Positions 5,332-15,292 of a DNA stretch of 15,292 nucleotides are shown here, piece by piece. The notes under the pieces are model-generated. The model was not told where the DNA came from. It saw nothing but the letters and a program-made list of their open reading frames with translations, and searched no databases. Position 1 is the stretch's first letter. The number at the start of each line of letters is the position of its first letter. A program made the translations under genes and the position numbers. The stretch is from Candidatus Hodarchaeota archaeon (GTDB lineage Archaea; Asgardarchaeota; Lokiarchaeia; Sigyniarchaeales; SOKP01): NCBI GenBank assembly GCA_048886685.1, contig JBHLKM010000034.1, positions 1 through 15,292 on the forward strand. Reading direction: 5' to 3'.

Positions 5332-5534
5332 AATATTCGATTAATATAAAAAGGGTTGATGAAATATCCCAGTACATCGAGAACTTACAAGAATTATTAC
5401 CAAACACACATCCGAATGTCAATCTTCGAAGTGATAGTAATTTACATAGGCTCAAGGGCGATAATAGAATGGAATTACTGACAGTTTTCGAAGCACTGCT
5501 TGAAGCCATATTTCAAGTAGACTTATTAGATTGA
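5332..5534 (+). pseudogene. 5'-truncated paralog of the 6986-7303 gene
   Basis: 5332-5513 is colinear with 7035-7216 (offset 1703; hand count 34/182 nt mismatches, 42/60 aa identical). Lacks the MTPYRLKFEIEIDENQE N-terminus. Confidence 0.75.
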
Positions 5535-5538
5535 GATT

Positions 5539-5600
5539 GGTAAATTCAGAGTCTGATTTCAATGAAAATTCATTTAAAAAGACTAAACAAAAGCTTTGAA
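5539..5600 (+). repeat. Dispersed intergenic element copy A (33-bp core 5539-5571 + degenerate right arm)
   Basis: GGTAAATTCAGAGTCTGATTTCAATGAAAATTC, then atttaaaaagac...acaaaagctttgaa resembling the right arms of copies C and D. Confidence 0.9.
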
Positions 5601-6985: not shown

Positions 6986-7303
6986 ATGACTCCTTATAGG
7001 TTAAAATTTGAAATTGAGATTGATGAGAATCAGGAATATTCGATTAACATAAGAAGGGCTGATGAGATATCCCAGTACATCGAAAATTTACATGAACTAT
7101 TACCAGACACTTTTCCGAATGTCAAACTTCGCAATAATGGTAATTTATATAAGCTTAAGAGCGAGAATAGAACAGATTTACTGAATGTTTTTACAGCATT
7201 GCTTGAAGTTATTTTTTTTTCATATTGTTTTCGCCAAGAGGGTATAAACTATCATGTAAAAAATTATATAATTATATTTAACATTTTTGTCTATTACTCG
7301 TAG
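6986..7303 (+). CDS. Small hypothetical protein; C-terminus possibly altered at a poly-T run
   Basis: SD AGGTGG 4 nt before the ATG. Paralog at 5332-5534. Similarity to the paralog stops at the T run (~7212-7221). Confidence 0.7.
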   Translation: MTPYRLKFEIEIDENQEYSINIRRADEISQYIENLHELLPDTFPNVKLRNNGNLYKLKSENRTDLLNVFTALLEVIFFSYCFRQEGINYHVKNYIIIFNIFVYYS

Positions 7304-7407: not shown

Positions 7408-9195
7408 ATGTCTAACCTAATAGAATTAGTATTTCTTTTTTTAGTTCTTATTTTAACGGGGCTAAGCATCATTTATTTCGTAGCACAGAAAAGAGAGAAT
7501 TCACCTCCTCTTCTAAAATATATCATCATGCTTGTTTTAGGGATTTCGATTATCATTTTCATAATAAATTCATTACCCGTTATAGGGTCTGTTTCAGAGC
7601 CTGAAGTTTCTTCTGAAAACGTAATAGTTAGTAATATCCCGCTTTTTTTACTCTGCTTTTCTACTGCGTTATTTATTTATTCAGTGAACAATTCTGGTGA
7701 TGATGTTGTGGAATTGGATAATCCTTCAATCTTGAAATCTAGAAAAGGTACAATTAAAATTGGCAGAGTAATGAAAGGGAAACAAAAGAAGCATAAATTT
7801 TTTCTTTCACTTAAGGATCTGGAAAAGCACATGTTTATTTGTGGCGCAACAGGTACAGGAAAAACAACACTTTTACAATATCTTCTTATGAATTTTACTA
7901 AGCATCACAAAATTCCTTTCATGCTTGTGGAGTTTAAGGGAGAGTATCATTTTTTACAGCGAAAGATCGAGAATTTATTGATATTTCGACCAGGAGAGAA
8001 TTTCTCGATAAATATCTTTAATCCGGGGGACATCGCTCCAGAAGTTCATGCTGAACGCGTTTTTGATATATTAAAGAGTGGAAAGTTTTTAGATGAAAAT
8101 GCTGAGTTTTCTCCTCAAATGGAGAAAGTTCTTGTCGAAATTCTAACTAAGGTATGTGCGAACAAACAATTTCAGAGTTGGAAAGGATTTTATGATTATT
8201 GTAAAGGGTATGCGAAGAATAAGAAAGATGAGATTCCAATGTTAAGTCAAACTCTTATCAGTATTACAAATAGGATTAGGCGGTTTTCCTTAGGATCGTT
8301 AAAAGCATTATTTGATACAGATCATAACATTAAAATAGAAAATATCTTCGAGAGAAATATTTTAATTGATTTAAGTTCAATTATACGCTTGGGAGGAGAG
8401 AAAGAAGATGCTCTTTTCTTTTTAAATATGTTATTGAAATATTTATGGGATATAAATCTCACACGGGGAGCTTTTAATTTTAAGGGCATAAAACATGTAA
8501 CTATTGTCGAAGATACACAATATTTTGCCCCAAAAGATCTTACACGACAAAATAAGTTGACAACATACTTAGAGGATATCGCTCTACTTCAAAGAGGTAC
8601 AGGAGAATGCCTAATCTCTCTAGCAACTCACCCTGATATAAGTCAAGAAATATTGGCAAATTGCGGCGTTTTAGTATGCTTTAAAACCCATATTGAAAAA
8701 GAATTTTTATGTAAATTATTAAACCTTGATACTGAAAATGAAGATTATTTGTCGATTTTAGAGGAGGGGCAATGTCTAATTCGTGTTAATTCTATCAAGA
8801 GACCTTTTTTACTAAGTGTTCCCTTTGTTAAAAGAGATTGGTTAGAAATATCTGAAATTACCAAAAATAACCAAATCATTTTGGAAAATCTTGAAAACAA
8901 AAGTTTTGAAGTGGTAAAAACACCACATGTTAAATTTATAAAGAAATTTAAGGAAAAAAGTGCTAAAAGTATGAGTAGAATAAATAATAAAATTAAGGAA
9001 TTGAAGAATAAACTCACAAAGAAGTTAAAGAATAAAGAAAGTGATCCAATATTTATACCTAATTTTGATTCCAATAGGGATATTTTAGAAGATGATATAG
9101 ATCCTTTTGATGAAGTTGAAAAAGATAGAGAAGCATACGAGAGATTGAAAAAATACATAAATAAGCTAGCCGCAGAACAGGAAAAAGCTGGGTAG
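7408..9195 (+). CDS. Membrane-anchored HerA/FtsK-VirB4-like (DUF87) P-loop ATPase
   Basis: Three N-terminal hydrophobic segments. Motifs KHMFICGATGTGKTT (Walker A), EFKGEY, SINIF, IDLS, TIVEDTQYF (Walker-B region), QRGTG, LATHP, ILANCG and LEEGQC. Lys-rich coiled-coil tail. Confidence 0.9.
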   Translation: MSNLIELVFLFLVLILTGLSIIYFVAQKRENSPPLLKYIIMLVLGISIIIFIINSLPVIGSVSEPEVSSENVIVSNIPLFLLCFSTALFIYSVNNSGDDVVELDNPSILKSRKGTIKIGRVMKGKQKKHKFFLSLKDLEKHMFICGATGTGKTTLLQYLLMNFTKHHKIPFMLVEFKGEYHFLQRKIENLLIFRPGENFSINIFNPGDIAPEVHAERVFDILKSGKFLDENAEFSPQMEKVLVEILTKVCANKQFQSWKGFYDYCKGYAKNKKDEIPMLSQTLISITNRIRRFSLGSLKALFDTDHNIKIENIFERNILIDLSSIIRLGGEKEDALFFLNMLLKYLWDINLTRGAFNFKGIKHVTIVEDTQYFAPKDLTRQNKLTTYLEDIALLQRGTGECLISLATHPDISQEILANCGVLVCFKTHIEKEFLCKLLNLDTENEDYLSILEEGQCLIRVNSIKRPFLLSVPFVKRDWLEISEITKNNQIILENLENKSFEVVKTPHVKFIKKFKEKSAKSMSRINNKIKELKNKLTKKLKNKESDPIFIPNFDSNRDILEDDIDPFDEVEKDREAYERLKKYINKLAAEQEKAG

Positions 9196-9448
9196 TTAAA
9201 GTTTCCGTCATATACAGTAATAGAGGTCATAGGGGTTTATCTTTCTATTATTATTAAGTATAATTTAGGTGTTTTCTTAATAAGTATTTGAGTATCTTGT
9301 ATTTCAAATTTTCAAACCTATATTCTTTTCTTCATAGTTATTCTGAATTACCGAACATGATCTTCCAAAAATGTTAAAAATAATTCTAACAATTATATAC
9401 TTTAAGAGAAGACTTAAAGAAATCAAGATATCCAAGGTGGTGTAGAAA

Positions 9449-9673
9449 ATGAAAAAATGTGAATATTTTAACTGTAATAATAAAGCCACGAGAACTATCA
9501 AGCAGGGGAGTTATAAAATATACGTATGTAGTCGACACTATAAAAGAGATACAAGAAAAGGGAGTGATGAAGCGTTACATAAAGTTCTTAGATTTGATAC
9601 TATATCGACTATTATCTGTAGTGTCTGTACTATAATAATAACTGTAATAATATTACTTCTAGCAGTAGGATGA
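9449..9673 (+). CDS. Small putative zinc-finger protein with C-terminal membrane anchor
   Basis: SD AGGTGG upstream. C-x4-C (CEYFNC) ... C-x2-H (CSRH), then a hydrophobic C-terminal helix. Confidence 0.7.
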   Translation: MKKCEYFNCNNKATRTIKQGSYKIYVCSRHYKRDTRKGSDEALHKVLRFDTISTIICSVCTIIITVIILLLAVG

Positions 9674-9876
9674 TTAAGGAATTTAGGAATAAACTCACAA
9701 AGAAGTTAAGGAATAAAGAAAGCAATCCAATGTTTATCCCTAATTTTGATCCCCATAAAGATCATTTAGAGGATAATATTGATCCTTTTGATGAAGATGA
9801 AAAAGATAGAGAAGCATACGAGAGATTGAAGAGATACATAAATAAATTAGCTGCAGAACAGGAAAAAGGCAGCTAA
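9670..9876 (+). pseudogene. Duplicated C-terminal 67 aa of the HerA-like ATPase (could be translated through an ATGA overlap)
   Basis: IKEFRNKLTKKLRNKESNPMFIPNFD...AAEQEKGS matches the ATPase tail. The ATG overlaps the upstream TGA. Confidence 0.7.
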
Positions 9877-9973
9877 TTAAAATTTAGAGCTTAGTAGCTT
9901 CAATAAATCATTTAATGGATCTAGTCTTTTTCAATGGGTTTAAGATGTAAAAGAGAAATAAAAAAAAATTAAT

Positions 9974-11259: not shown

Positions 11260-11844
11260 CTAAATCATCAACCTTAGAGATGTTCTAAATCCAACAAGAA
11301 TCCAGAAGAAGAACCCTACTGCTACAAATGCCATGAATTTTAATTTAGAACGGAGTATGAATTTGTTAAAGAACATAAGATAGATTCCTATGATTATTAA
11401 CAGAAGCGAGATTAATGAGAGAAAATTGATTAAAAAAAACAAAGTTCTGGCCCAAATATTTAAGTTATGAACATTACTCAATGAGATAGAATCGATCTCC
11501 TCCATATAACCTAGCAATATTGCTGGTTCTGGTAATTTTTCGGACAATTGAAATAATGATTTTAAGAGATCTTCGGATAAGAAGGCAAACGCGAGAATAA
11601 AAGAAATTACCATTCCGGCGCGTCCTCTTTTTTTCACCAATTCCTCTTTTCCATGAACTTTTTCATCATATTCTATTTCTCTCGCATTTATCAGCAATAG
11701 GACACTCAAAATTAGAAAGAGGAAAAAGAACAAATAATTCGCATTCTTGAAGAGAACATAAAAAAACTTGTTAAATCCATTTAGGAAAGGGATTAAGGGT
11801 TCAAAAATTTCACTGAAATCGAATTCTGAGAAAAATTCTAACAT
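11260..11844 (-). CDS. Integral membrane hypothetical protein (~4 TM)
   Basis: Four long hydrophobic stretches separated by basic loops. The left arm of repeat copy B lies directly upstream. Confidence 0.8.
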   Translation of the reverse strand: MLEFFSEFDFSEIFEPLIPFLNGFNKFFYVLFKNANYLFFFLFLILSVLLLINAREIEYDEKVHGKEELVKKRGRAGMVISFILAFAFLSEDLLKSLFQLSEKLPEPAILLGYMEEIDSISLSNVHNLNIWARTLFFLINFLSLISLLLIIIGIYLMFFNKFILRSKLKFMAFVAVGFFFWILVGFRTSLRLMI

Positions 11845-11855
11845 ATTTAGTTAAG

Positions 11856-11997
11856 GTAATTGAGTCGATTGTTCTGATAATTTTGATTAGACCATATGAA
11901 TATCTGAGATTTGATATTTAAATTCAAAGTATTTTAATGAACATATCTTTTAAAGGTTCCTGAATGGTAAATTCAGAGTCTGATTTTATTGAAAATT
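11856..11997 (+). repeat. Dispersed intergenic element copy B (110-bp left arm + core 11966-11997)
   Basis: Gap-free match to 12950-13091 (about 18/142 mismatches by hand count). Core GGTAAATTCAGAGTCTGATTTTATTGAAAATT. Confidence 0.95.
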
Positions 11998-12160
11998 AAA
12001 TGTGGAGCTGGTCATCCTTTATCTGTCCATTCCTGAAAAATCAAACTTCAATTTAATTTTACACAAAAATGTCAAAAATTAAATACTAGAAAAAAGTAAC
12101 TTAAATTTGATATTCTATCTAACCCAATAATTTTATTTTTTCTATGAAATTGAATTTAAG

Positions 12161-12826
12161 GTGTCAAAGTTGAAAAATGTTAAAAAAATAATAATAGGTT
12201 TGTTTATTATATTCTTCCTCTCGTTTTTTAGTCACAATGCGATAAGCGCTACAACGATAGGAGATACAACCTTTCCAGCTGATGTCGGAATAACATATAC
12301 ATGGAAAGTTACTTATCCTCCTGAAACTAAAGGCTATAAAATTACTTTTAAATCTGAATCAATAGAGAAAGGCGTACATAATACTATAGATGCATTAATG
12401 GTAAATTGTACAATAAGACAATATCATCCTTTAACAGGATGGATTACCACATCGGACAATGAATTTTATATGGCTGCTAATAATACTCAAAATTATCTTT
12501 ACTTTGGCGATTATATGTTCTTCCCAAATATAATACCAATACCTATAAATCTAACATTAGTAGCTGAAGCTAGGTATGCTAGTAACTATTCTATTGTTGA
12601 TAATACAATTATTGAAAACTCTAACGGAGATACGGATGAATATACCTATAATACTGATGGTTTTTTAATTTCATACGTATCGAAAGAGGACGGAGAAATT
12701 GTTCTTAAGTTTGTCTTGACTACTGGTGATGGTGGAGCTGCAATTCCTTTTGATAATTATTTCTTAATTTTCATGGTCATCGGTGTTGTAGCATTGGTAT
12801 ATCTTAAAAAGCAGAAAATTAAATAA
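12161..12826 (+). CDS. Secreted/cell-surface protein with Loki-CTERM-like anchor (start may be TTG at 12170)
   Basis: N-terminal signal peptide KKIIIGLFIIFFLSFFSHNAISA. C-terminus GGAAIPFDNYFLIFMVIGVVALVYLKKQKIK. SD-like AGGTG lies 6 nt before TTG 12170; T-tract after the stop. Confidence 0.88.
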   Translation: MSKLKNVKKIIIGLFIIFFLSFFSHNAISATTIGDTTFPADVGITYTWKVTYPPETKGYKITFKSESIEKGVHNTIDALMVNCTIRQYHPLTGWITTSDNEFYMAANNTQNYLYFGDYMFFPNIIPIPINLTLVAEARYASNYSIVDNTIIENSNGDTDEYTYNTDGFLISYVSKEDGEIVLKFVLTTGDGGAAIPFDNYFLIFMVIGVVALVYLKKQKIK

Positions 12827-12949
12827 TTTTTTTTTATTTTTATTTTTTATAAATTTTTAAATGTATCTAAGAAATCTTTCATTCTAAGCAGAGTTTAGAA
12901 TTTTTTTGTGTCCTGATATAATACAATTCTTCTCACGAATTCGGAAGGT

Positions 12950-13159
12950 GTAATTGAATCGATTGTTCTGTTAATTTTGATTAGACCATAAGAATATCCG
13001 AGATTCGATATTTAAATTCAAAGGATTTTAATGAGAATAAATCTGAAAGATTCCCGAATGGTAAATTCAGCGTCTAATTTCAATGAAAATTCCTTTGAGA
13101 AAACGAAATTATAATACAAAAGGCTTTTAAGGAAATCCTTCTTCCTTATTTTTAAATCC
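12950..13159 (+). repeat. Dispersed intergenic element copy C (left arm + core 13060-13092 + right arm)
   Basis: Left arm shared with copy B, right arm shared with copy D. Core GGTAAATTCAGCGTCTAATTTCAATGAAAATTC. Confidence 0.95.
13116..13132 (+). promoter_or_regulatory. Candidate BRE/TATA promoter in the right arm of copy C
   Basis: ACAAAAGGCTTTTAAGG, ~50 nt upstream of ATG 13182; conserved in copy D. Confidence 0.5.
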
Positions 13160-13181
13160 GATTATTAATCAAGTAAGAAAA

Positions 13182-13349
13182 ATGTCCGATCCTCGTCCTA
13201 AAGAACTGATCCATGCCGAGGAGCTTATGTACAATGGGAAAATAGAGGAAGCACTTGAAATCATTTATAATTTCGAGAAAAACTTCAAACCAGTTACAAA
13301 ACAACACTTGTGGGCACTTCTGTCAAGAGGTTGGGCGAAAGAGACCTAG
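13182..13349 (+). pseudogene. 3'-truncated TPR-like gene (55 aa), cut at a direct repeat
   Basis: MSDPRPKELIHAEELMYNGKIEEALEIIYNFEKNFKPVTKQHLWALLSRGWAKET*. The A..L...G..EEAL pattern is TPR-like; the stop codon lies inside the 13336-13368 repeat. Confidence 0.65.
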
Positions 13350-13368
13350 TTCTCTGGTTTTAAAAGAA
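13336..13368 (+). repeat. 33-bp direct repeat, left copy
   Basis: CGAAAGAGACCTAGTTCTCTGGTTTtAAAAGAA; 32/33 identical to 13904-13936; internal AGAGA-cctagt-TCTCT dyad. Confidence 0.95.
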
Positions 13369-13490
13369 AACAACTATAATTATGAGTAAAAAATTAACAT
13401 TAATAACCAAAAGAAACTTAATTAATCATACAGATGTGATGTAATTATAAGGTTTGTATATTTAATTATCAATTTAATAAGGAGGCAAAT

Positions 13491-13871
13491 ATGAGTAAAG
13501 AACAATCAGATAGCGAGCTTATAGAGGAGACCATTGAACATTACTTCAAAGGGATGTACCATGGTGACGTGGAAAGGCTAAAAAAGGCATTTCATCCCGA
13601 GGCACATGTTATTGGACACTTTGATGGGAATTTCATCTTCAATTCGCTGGACCAATTCCTCGGTTTTATCAAGAGCGCCCCTGTTCCGGCTGAGAAGGGA
13701 GAGGAGTATGACATGAAGATCGTCTTAACCGATATAACAGGGGATGTCGGTTGCGTTAAGGTAGAGGACCTCTACCAGGGAAGGAGGTTTACAGACTACC
13801 TGACGGTTCTGAAACATGAAAACAACTGGGTTATTATAAACAAGGGATACCGCCACGAACCAAAATCCTAG
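13491..13871 (+). CDS. NTF2-like (SnoaL / putative lumazine-binding, Lumazine_bd_2-type) protein
   Basis: Signature YFKGMYHGDVERLKKAFHPEA ... FTDYLTVLK..NNWVIINK. Strong AGGAGG SD at 13480-13485. Confidence 0.93.
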   Translation: MSKEQSDSELIEETIEHYFKGMYHGDVERLKKAFHPEAHVIGHFDGNFIFNSLDQFLGFIKSAPVPAEKGEEYDMKIVLTDITGDVGCVKVEDLYQGRRFTDYLTVLKHENNWVIINKGYRHEPKS

Positions 13872-13903
13872 ATTATAGATTATTAAAATCGAAGACAATT
13901 TAA

Positions 13904-13936
13904 CGAAAGAGACCTAGTTCTCTGGTTTGAAAAGAA
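13904..13936 (+). repeat. 33-bp direct repeat, right copy
   Basis: CGAAAGAGACCTAGTTCTCTGGTTTgAAAAGAA, 568 bp from the left copy. Confidence 0.95.
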
Positions 13937-14025
13937 GATAAACTTCATGAAGATTTAGGAATTTGTATAAGACTCCCAGTTGATATTTTTTCTTGTTGAA
14001 ATTTCACATGATATCGGCAAGGAAA

Positions 14026-14140
14026 GGTAAATTCAGCGTCTGAGTTCAATGAAAATTCCTTTGAAAAGACAAAAAAATCTTAAATCTAAATTATGGCACA
14101 AAAGCCTTTTAAGGAAACTTATCTTCATAATTTTTAATCC
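14026..14140 (+). repeat. Dispersed intergenic element copy D (core 14026-14058 + right arm)
   Basis: Core GGTAAATTCAGCGTCTGAGTTCAATGAAAATTC. The right arm aligns with copy C apart from a ~16-bp insertion. Confidence 0.93.
14098..14114 (+). promoter_or_regulatory. Candidate BRE/TATA promoter in the right arm of copy D
   Basis: ACAAAAGCCTTTTAAGG, ~57 nt upstream of ATG 14171. Confidence 0.5.
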
Positions 14141-14170
14141 ATAAACTACAAATTTAATCTGTGTTGTTAC

Positions 14171-15190
14171 ATGAAAACTACTGTAATATCTGGCAGTTAT
14201 TATGAGATGGGATATAAGTTAGGTTCCCAATATAAAAATTTTTTTGAACCACCTCCTTGTCATCCAGAAAAACTAAAACTATCACACCAATGCAAAGGAA
14301 TTGTAAAACAGTACATCCCTGATCTACTTGAAGAGATTCGAGGATTTTGTGATGCTGGAAATTTTGATCTTGAGTCTATCGAAGCATTTCTGTTAGTTTT
14401 AGGATATGAGCTTCTTTCTCTTCCAGAGGAGGGTTGTACGGTTTTTGCTATTGGGAGTGAATTAACTGATTCTGGATATCCCATGTTTGCTCGAAATTAT
14501 GATTTTAACGTAAAAATCCAATCATCTTGTGGAATTACATTTAGATCCCCTTTAGGAAAATTGAAAAGTATAGCTTTTTCAGATCATATGATTGGAAATA
14601 TGGGAGGAATAAATGAATCTGGATTAGCAATTGCAATACTTTTAGCAGGGAATTATGATAGTAAGTGGCAACCAGGAATAAGGATGAACTTATCGACTAG
14701 ATGGATTATGGATAATTGTCGCAATACAAAAGAGGCAGTATCTTTTCTTGAAAAAATCCCTCATGTGAGAGGACAATTTTTTATGGTTATGGACAAGGAA
14801 GATAATATAGCCCGAGTGGAAACCTCACCCCCCCATGTGGCTGTTACATATGCTAAGAAGGATTATTTATTCAGTACGAATCATTATCAAGATGAATCCC
14901 TAAAGAAATATTCAAATCAATCTTTAATACATCCCAAAAGTTTAGAACGATTTAGTAAAGTCAAAAATTTCCTTGAAAAAAGGAGCAACAATTTAACTTT
15001 AAATAATATCATGGAATTCCTGAGCTCGCATGAAAAGGGAGTATGTAGTCATGTTGAGATAGATGGAAGAAATATTGCTACGTTATACTCATGGTTAGCT
15101 GAGATTCGTGAAAAAGGAGATGCTCTTCAAGCATGGGCAACAAGTGGCGCTCCCTGCAAAAATAAATATGAAATTTATACCTACTTTTAG
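14171..15190 (+). CDS. C45 family Ntn-hydrolase (acyl-CoA:6-APA acyltransferase-like autoproteolytic peptidase)
   Basis: GSYYEMGYKLG N-terminus, EEG|CT autoprocessing Cys, ARNYD, GGINESGLAI and TNHY motifs. Confidence 0.94.
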   Translation: MKTTVISGSYYEMGYKLGSQYKNFFEPPPCHPEKLKLSHQCKGIVKQYIPDLLEEIRGFCDAGNFDLESIEAFLLVLGYELLSLPEEGCTVFAIGSELTDSGYPMFARNYDFNVKIQSSCGITFRSPLGKLKSIAFSDHMIGNMGGINESGLAIAILLAGNYDSKWQPGIRMNLSTRWIMDNCRNTKEAVSFLEKIPHVRGQFFMVMDKEDNIARVETSPPHVAVTYAKKDYLFSTNHYQDESLKKYSNQSLIHPKSLERFSKVKNFLEKRSNNLTLNNIMEFLSSHEKGVCSHVEIDGRNIATLYSWLAEIREKGDALQAWATSGAPCKNKYEIYTYF

Positions 15191-15292
15191 TATTAAAAAT
15201 AGTTTTATTCCTCAAATTTATACTTTTATTATAAATATTTTTGTTTGGTTTCGATTTTTCGCTCATTTGCATTTTCCTCCGCGCTCAAAACA

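Follow-up and report, generated by a model that had tools for sequence, protein, structure and literature searches.

Short sites bound gene modules in the dif/pdif systems, where a Xer recombinase acts in trans; pdif sites alternate in orientation and follow an 11-6-11 layout with a 28-bp dyad. In the ICESt1/ICESt3 family and in IME-CIME arrays, integrative elements and CIMEs accrete in tandem at a shared att site (PMC5704250), and archaeal elements that re-use one site have been reported (PMC6563490). Integrons and CALINs have also been described, archaeal ones included (Ghaly et al. 2022, PMC9668308). In the Atabeyarchaeia, Yucahu-i is an element of ~10 kb that encodes a tyrosine integrase and a helicase and has an 11-bp att motif in direct repeat at one or two places, and mini-Yucahu is a small derivative able to excise (PMC11529989). 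Here we analyze a repeated site in a Promethearchaeota (Loki) family and conclude from sequence comparison that this ~50-bp site is probably the att site of small integrative elements, which form tandem-accretion arrays of the IME/CIME kind. The system is best read as one that works like an integron without being one.

Copies of the site and their arrays

The window is a stretch of 15,292 nucleotides from one genome, whose assembly we label G000 (other G and L labels denote genomes and loci of relatives). A sequence-only reading of the window had reported four intergenic, co-oriented copies of a 33-mer, intervals of 1094 and 966 bp, and two adjacent dyads in the core. We re-found all four copies on the plus strand between genes, starting at 5539, 11966, 13060 and 14026, with the same two intervals between the last three and both dyads present. 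The statement that each copy lies two positions away from the one at 5539 stood for 13060 and 14026 but not for 11966, which has three mismatches. The conserved stretch exceeds the 33-mer, running from about -8 to +43 relative to it (~50 bp), and contains repeated TTYC-N3-GAAA boxes. The features of the window, in which the earlier labels for the NTF2-like and C45/AAT genes and for the TPR remnant were borne out, are as follows.

5535..5581, plus strand: att-like site copy 1 (33-mer 5539-5571), the array's first copy, downstream of the thermosome gene
11856..11965, plus strand: 110-bp left flank of copy 2, the upstream region of a minus-strand membrane-protein gene; duplicated before copy 3
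11962..11998, plus strand: att-like site copy 2 (33-mer 11966-11998); right arm shortened, homology to G047 stops at 11997
11996..12040, minus strand: short 3' gene scrap, stop codon overlapping the end of copy 2
12161..12826, plus strand: cargo, 221-aa predicted surface/membrane-anchored protein
12892..12947, minus strand: RHH-like gene scrap from the parent element (80-82% over 61 nt)
12950..13059, plus strand: second copy of the 110-bp flank, at the distal end of the 1094-bp unit
13056..13102, plus strand: att-like site copy 3 (33-mer 13060-13092)
13100..13350, plus strand: TPR-family gene, upstream region plus 5' remnant (70% over 231 nt to a TPR gene start on contig C15)
13491..13871, plus strand: cargo, NTF2-like gene (PF12893)
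14022..14068, plus strand: att-like site copy 4 (33-mer 14026-14058)
14171..15190, plus strand: cargo, C45/AAT Ntn-hydrolase (PF03417)
15213..15292, minus strand: RHH-like gene 5' scrap from the parent element (matches element backbones at up to 96% over 46 nt)

The scrap beside copy 2 looks like an ABC-ATPase tail from its residue pattern, with no homolog found. The 221-aa protein had no match in Pfam, and its gene has 90-93% identical counterparts in G017 and G048 that lack an adjoining site, so cargo is found away from sites too. At the right end, an ORF at 15078-15272 has a start that resembles the RHH protein, and the RHH-like scrap there leads towards the next site past the contig end, probably C12:166666 by synteny. 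The NTF2-like gene lies between the two copies (13336 and 13904) of a different direct repeat of 33 bp, which is private to the window and which we excluded from the site system.

The repeat is real and not a chance match. This genome holds 43 sites at 20 bits or more, the reversed genome has none even at 14 bits or more, and shuffled motifs gave 0-1 matches even when 9 mismatches were allowed. Across the family, 92 of 129 other genomes carry the site, and we did not find it in the other families of the same order that we searched (0/19 genomes). An Rfam search of the site and a search of viral contigs for the exact core returned no match, and we found no description of the site in the literature. 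We also considered and rejected a replication-origin (ORB) reading: neither close cdc6 gene has an adjoining site, the tie to GC skew is inconsistent, and at the same locus site orientation is reversed between G018 and G065.

Copies are clustered and co-oriented rather than scattered singly before related genes. Adjacent copies point the same way in 104 of 105 neighboring pairs, at a median spacing of 1.3 kb (range 277-5307 bp, compared with the 30-40-bp spacers of CRISPR arrays, which the earlier reading had correctly set aside). Genomes contain several arrays at different loci, with arrays reaching 10 sites and genomes reaching 43, and the units between sites are mostly host-like accessory genes of 0.3-5 kb. 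The copy at 5539, previously called distant, opens the array to which the other three belong, and that array continues by synteny on contig C12 (10 copies in ~23 kb). That all cargo in the window lies on the plus strand is local luck and not a trait of the system, as site and downstream gene share a strand in 20 cases and oppose each other in 18 genome-wide in G000.

A tyrosine recombinase linked to the site in relatives

The sequence-only reading had placed the recombinase elsewhere, and we found a candidate beside the site in relatives. At 16 of 20 loci encoding a 302-aa tyrosine recombinase (at least 60% identity), the site lies upstream on the opposite strand, at a fixed 630-631 bp from the recombinase start, with an RHH-like gene in between; none of 34 other tyrosine recombinase loci has a site within 1 kb. 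One copy of the enzyme is encoded at L072:4878-5786. The 16 site-linked enzymes are 62-96% identical to one another, and alignment showed the catalytic residues R151, K175, H242, R245, H268 and Y278 to be intact. Exceptions to the link are L197 and L214 (81-82% enzymes) and L138 (75%), which have no site at 631 bp. Two enzymes of genus g16 (69-70%) have, at the equivalent position, a site that has diverged. The recombinase scores 88 bits against the XerA model NF040815 (cut-off 220) and 53.7 bits against the IntI model TIGR02249 (cut-off 265), with no insertion relative to XerA in the alignment.

Reading from one site to the other, elements carry an RHH-like gene (172-182 aa), the 302-aa tyrosine recombinase, a convergent SF2-helicase-like gene and then cargo, and at L126, L128, L139 and L124 two direct site copies bound elements of 3.7-9.6 kb. 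We saw no conjugation module in the elements that we read. The RHH protein has a weak NikA-like match (E 8e-4, below cut-off), and an ESM Atlas match to the N-terminal part of a 981-aa protein at L076 was set aside at <0.9.

The recombinase is scarce. Close copies occur in 4 of 51 genomes of the genus (G040, G041, G057 and a fragment in G014) and relatives in 16 of 133 genomes of the family, whereas the site is found in most genomes. Neither the recombinase nor the SF2-helicase-like gene was found in G000, where RHH-gene scraps of 40-290 bp adjoin sites, two of them in the window. This assembly retains only sites and scraps of the element, and we read the window as an integrase-less array.

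Breakpoints within the site and competing explanations

To ask whether sites act as exchange points we compared flank pairs and gene adjacency; counts of HSP ends, with sites masked, were not used as a test. Among site pairs, 34 have one flank in common and none has both. Gene adjacency relative to G000 is preserved at 2 of 40 site junctions compared with 110 of 214 other junctions (Fisher 5e-9, a value to be read with the caveat that kin are not independent), so gene order across the cores is not conserved in relatives. Three complete site-to-site units recur in other species at 80-95% identity with both flanks different. In 12 of 13 genome pairs, the shared units are closer in sequence than the pair's xerA regions (e.g. 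95 vs 76%), marking recent exchange between species. Together with the clustering and the linked recombinase in relatives, these results support the earlier proposal of a non-attC recombination site for cassette accretion.

Breakpoints fall inside the site. Variation in the site is linked to the left flank up to about +3 and to the right flank from about +33, with position 12 linked to neither. The strongest half-sites stop or start within positions 12-16, meeting at the dyad center; weak half-sites overlap the chance range. Position 12 of the 33-mer varies freely while the arms are more than 90% conserved, a pattern that fits protein recognition better than a neutral patch of homology.

An alternative that we regard as unlikely is that the site derives from an element but is now shuffled by homology (RadA-type recombination or microhomology on the ~50-bp repeat, longer with RHH scraps) or by the host XerA, with the integrase playing a minor part. 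The integrase is missing from most array-bearing genomes. XerA occurs throughout almost the whole genus, and no other tyrosine recombinase was found in G000. A 142-nt duplication at 87% identity, comprising the flank and the site, brackets the 1094-bp unit, and G000 has many additional duplication scars. Units in the window are mosaics carrying other scars, which indicates that other recombination also acts, and nine relatives vary at the thermosome hotspot although they have no site there. Against this explanation, in most shared flanks homology stops abruptly no more than about 10-25 bp from the site, half-sites join at the dyad center, position 12 is free between conserved arms, the xerA loci examined are site-free, and the search of the order's other families found no site. 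A search among 205 sites for a trio of empty and filled loci found none, and nine relatives are site-free at the orthologous locus. A possible degenerate attB after the gene at G000 C4:32634 was too weak to keep. Repeat joints in Logan contigs (one study) have a short side of only 21-35 nt that matches other copies as well, which makes them uninformative about circles.

A transcription-factor operator or portable promoter, for example one bound by the RHH protein and regulating flanking genes, would account for the site in the upstream region of the RHH-integrase operon, with its TTYC-N3-GAAA boxes, and for several TPR paralogs that start 84-113 bp downstream of sites on the same strand. We consider it very improbable as a replacement for recombination: orientation follows neighboring copies and not genes, many copies lie between convergent gene ends, the flanking genes are unrelated, and a regulon leaves the breakpoints inside the site unexplained. 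The site may serve as an operator in addition to being a recombination site. An IS terminal-repeat relic or MITE, suggested by a short, imperfectly palindromic, multi-copy site with attached scraps of variable length, is largely refuted, as copies are direct and never paired as inverted ends, intact elements carry a tyrosine recombinase operon behind the site, and a search of G000, an assembly from which repeats may be missing, found no gene for IS110, IS4-like DDE (DDE_Tnp_1), IS200, a resolvase or an RT.

Proposed mechanism and relation to known systems

Under the att-site reading, the recombinase would catalyze strand exchange centrally in the first dyad, near positions 10-16 of the 33-mer. 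Integration of a single-site circle into a resident site would leave two sites in the same orientation, and because integration regenerates co-oriented sites, arrays would expand through tandem accretion. Non-autonomous units of 0.3-5 kb would arise from elements stripped of integrase and helicase, and from host genes trapped between a site and a weak secondary site; a visiting element could mobilize these units in trans. A founder copy presumably seeds each array, since the orthologous loci in many relatives lack a site.

The system resembles ICESt1/ICESt3-type accretion in having a tyrosine integrase beside att, decayed elements that keep att sites alone and, under our reading, newcomers that integrate into a resident att to form co-oriented arrays. 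It differs in that no fixed target gene or tRNA is apparent, arrays occur at several loci, and most units are small and host-like. The earlier reading's proposal of an undescribed system needs qualifying, as we would class the arrays with accretion of integrative elements at an att site in preference to an entirely new class.

Like integrons and CALINs, the arrays hold units of one to a few genes between co-oriented sites, the units cross species, the tyrosine recombinase is transcribed away from the first site, and most arrays are enzyme-less. Unlike in integrons, sites are fixed in length and sequence rather than conserved in structure, a single site type is found next to the enzyme as well as between units, the IntI extra domain is missing from the enzyme, and cargo lies on either strand. 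Ends of the attC form (RYYYAAC...GTTRRRY within 60 bp, either strand) were found at 0 of 201 sites, upholding their earlier exclusion, and the copies in the window have folding energies of -5.6 to -7.6 kcal/mol (z of -0.1 to -0.9 vs shuffles, RNA parameters), with no stable hairpin. Yucahu-i and mini-Yucahu share the plan of a small Asgard element with tyrosine integrase, helicase and direct att repeats, but their motif is 11 bp long and arrays of host-gene units are not described there. The dif/pdif systems likewise have short sites bounding gene modules, whereas here every site is direct and ~50 bp in length, and the linked enzyme is not XerA.

Few mechanisms have been named for the gain and swapping of accessory genes in Asgard archaea (integrons, aloposons and small integrated elements). 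Our work yields a defined site that is widespread in the family, a candidate enzyme and a predicted crossover point, and the sites explain assembly breaks at these loci in family genomes. More tentatively, we suggest as a possibility that this is a non-integron cassette platform of Asgard archaea, in which host genes are captured, stacked into arrays and handed from species to species by a mobile tyrosine recombinase acting with a single double-stranded site; that site may have originated as an in-frame junction swapping toxin-like protein tips on elements, later adopted by the host lineage as its main system of accessory-gene exchange. Packets of one to three genes, with cargo that includes TPR proteins, hydrolases and surface proteins, are swappable between sites and move between species, which would represent a second, independent route to integron-like arrays.

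A directional repeat in arrays

Contig C34, from a 4.4-Mb assembly, makes up the entire window and carries four copies of the 33-bp core, all on the forward strand, starting at 5539, 11966, 13060 and 14026. The same-strand arrangement and the spacing of the last three copies, 1094 and 966 bp, agree with the sequence-only reading, as do its identifications of the cargo genes; it had given every copy two differences from the 5539 copy, which is right for two of them, but the 11966 copy has three. Across 201 sites, conservation extends from about -8 to +43 relative to the core, with most of positions 1-32 fixed at 85-99% and position 12 nearly free (A 47%, C 41%). A profile search found 43 genomic sites that score at least 20 bits; the reversed genome gave no match scoring 14 bits or higher.

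Copies cluster, as had been suspected: the end of contig C15 holds ten and that of C12 six, the start of C25 holds seven, and C19 and C34 have six and four. In this genome and its relatives, neighbouring copies less than 6 kb apart point in the same direction in 104 of 105 pairs, at a median distance of 1.3 kb. Genes do not follow the direction of the site, since in this genome the downstream gene shares the strand of the site in 20 cases and lies opposite in 18, and the co-orientation of cargo noted in the window is therefore not general. The site pattern occurs in 92 of the 129 further family genomes surveyed (by genus, 47/50 in the organism's own and 37/42 in another). It was not found in any of 19 genomes from other families, and control patterns had no matches in the same survey.

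The parent element and its recombinase

Among 40 tyrosine recombinase loci of the genus, the site lies within 1 kb of one family only, a 302-aa protein; the gene ahead of it encodes 172-182 aa and has a weak RHH-type (NikA-like) match. When metagenome loci were included, 16 of the 20 loci with at least 60% identity had a site on the opposite strand that started 630-631 bp upstream of the recombinase; none of 34 other recombinase loci had a site within 1 kb. Site-bearing enzymes are 62-96% identical to one another. In L126, L128, L139 and L124, a further copy in direct orientation follows on the far side of the recombinase, 3.7-9.6 kb from the first. Between the two there is usually a convergent gene for an NTPase of 420-505 aa, which has Walker A and B motifs and resembles phage SF2 helicases. 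The recombinase retains R151, K175, H242, R245, H268 and Y278, lacks the IntI insertion in alignment and scores far under the cut-offs of both IntI and XerA.

This link is weaker in a second batch of loci from other genera: a diverged site stands at the corresponding position for two enzymes of 69-70% identity, an 81% enzyme retains the upstream extension with the core lost, and an 82% enzyme has neither. In the two loci with 69-70% enzymes (L200 and L213, genome G114), the diverged site keeps its left arm, has a changed centre and runs in frame into an ORF, a possible case of co-divergence of recombinase and site. A 44% relative with an RHH-like gene lies beside an apparent tRNA gene end with no site (L090:6429-8092, genome G042), and tRNA genes may be the targets of more deeply branching members of the family.

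We found neither the 302-aa recombinase nor the helicase in the assembly under study; the linked enzyme is encoded in relatives, in keeping with the earlier supposition that it lay elsewhere. The sole tyrosine recombinase of the genome is XerA, whose gene adjoins cdc6/orc1 on the same strand at C2:181992-184243 (L011), with no site copy nearby. Many of the genome's sites have 5' extensions of 40-290 bp that are the reverse complement of the RHH gene start, so the arrays hold physical relics of the parent element. Two lie in the window:

12892-12947, match to the reverse complement of the RHH gene start
15230-15281, match to the reverse complement of the RHH gene start

Exchange at the site and proposed array growth

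In 34 site pairs with a homologous flank reaching the site, the other flank was common in none; in a larger set both flanks were common in two pairs, one of related tandem elements and the other of near-identical contigs. Gene adjacency relative to the genome under study was retained at 2 of 40 site junctions versus 110 of 214 site-free junctions, a comparison among kin whose P value overstates the significance. The site marks exchange points, and gene content varies with breakpoints at the core as predicted. Three whole site-to-site units of 0.8-1.9 kb are shared by different species (80-95% identity), in each case between new neighbours on both sides. Shared units exceed the xerA-region identity of the same genome pair in 12 of 13 comparisons (e.g. 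95% versus 76%), which points to recent transfer. Homology to relative G047 covers the membrane-protein gene and ends at window 11997, the end of copy 2. Counting against a simple unit picture, 90-93% copies of the window's surface-protein gene in G017 and G048 have no adjoining site. This gene is tandemly duplicated in G048 (L054:1501-3410). In six of its copies, from four genomes, homology starts no more than a few bases from window 12035, which makes this position another fixed boundary, one that has no relation to the site.

Within the site, pairs with a common left flank have elevated identity as far as about +3, and those with a common right flank (11 pairs only) from about +33 onwards; position 12 tracks neither. 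The strongest half-sites stop at 14-16 or start at 12-16 (C25:3942, C15:89221, L128, L136, L027 and L095); weaker ones fall within the chance range. From the flank-linked identity and these ends, we infer strand exchange at the centre of the first dyad (TCAG-N3-CTGA). Tyrosine recombinases have overlap regions of 6-8 bp, for which this position is as expected. The RHH protein could bind TTYC-N3-GAAA boxes on both sides.

The repeat is probably an att site, with arrays built by tandem accretion. A single-site circle would integrate into a resident site to give two sites in the same orientation, and repeated integrations would give an array. Units that have lost integrase and helicase would remain excisable when an intact element visits and acts in trans, as would host genes trapped with a site on one side and a weak secondary site on the other. 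In the main rival, the repeat is today only a homology anchor or an XerA site; the rarity of the recombinase (close copies in 4/51 genus genomes, relatives in 16/133) fits this, but the sharp homology ends and half-sites do not. With these qualifications, the breakpoints, shared units and recombinase link support the proposed recombination site of a non-attC array system.

The window's array sits downstream of a thermosome gene that relatives connect with genes found here at C12:143-149 kb. C34 therefore very likely joins the C12 end, for a combined array of 10 copies in ~23 kb; the final bases of the window match the extension preceding other copies. Five of 20 relatives have sites at this locus, with nine copies in G022 and a single, reversed copy in each of G018 and G065, and nine of the 20 span the interval without any site. 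The locus is variable regardless of the site, which was seeded there, the founder fixing direction. A HerA-like ATPase (window 7408-9195) and a 194-aa membrane protein (11260-11844), separated in the window by a ferredoxin-like gene, co-travel in this hotspot in G047, G067 and G023. Duplicated gene tails without a site flank small cargo genes (8992-9204 and 9673-9885, 87%; 5332-5513 and 7035-7216, 81%), and a second, homology-based insertion route operates here. A different 33-bp repeat, with direct copies at 13336-13368 and 13904-13936 and an internal dyad, encloses the NTF2-like gene and truncates the TPR gene; it was found nowhere else in 52 genus genomes.

Related systems, in-frame sites and gene families

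Although the array works like that of an integron, the system is not one, because attC ends occur at 0 of 201 sites (as the sequence-only reading had judged), no stable fold of the site was found and the recombinase has no IntI domain; archaeal integrons retain all three features (PMC9668308). Of the processes described so far, the nearest is one in which integrative elements and att-only CIMEs, integrase-less att-bounded units, accrete in tandem (PMC5704250); our arrays differ from it in having no fixed target gene, in being many per genome and in consisting mostly of single host-like genes. Archaeal elements that re-use one site have been described (PMC6563490), and an att motif has been found in small Asgard elements (PMC11529989), for which arrays like these are not known. 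We found no description of this site in the literature.

At integrase-bearing loci, a single frame stays open across 15 of 23 sites and leads into ORFs of at least 100 codons; the other two frames show no such read-through, and the count elsewhere is 2 of 172 sites. For three sites the open frame is longer and surrounds the site, in L076 with 588 codons upstream of it. Several of the read-through ORFs have a common S24/S26-like peptidase domain and then a variable tip, in some cases with weak deaminase-toxin matches; LRR or small proteins follow and vary with the tip.

In-frame sites with peptidase and variable-tip ORFs, then immunity-like genes
L072: 4279
L074: 9120, 12460
L076: 2326, 9237
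L120: 5485
L123: 4366
L124: 7118, 13410
L125: 2397

The arrangement resembles the exchange of tips and immunity genes known from microbial polymorphic toxins; it was not seen in the window's units. Recombinase-driven exchange of toxin tips at in-frame sites is possible, and a lead only, since the Pfam matches are under cut-off. In the genome under study, members of an expanded TPR family each occupy a whole site-to-site unit (C5:241806-243767, C15:109603-111645 and C19:87701-89521), and several have a common upstream arm adjoining the site. The site system may lie behind the growth of this family.
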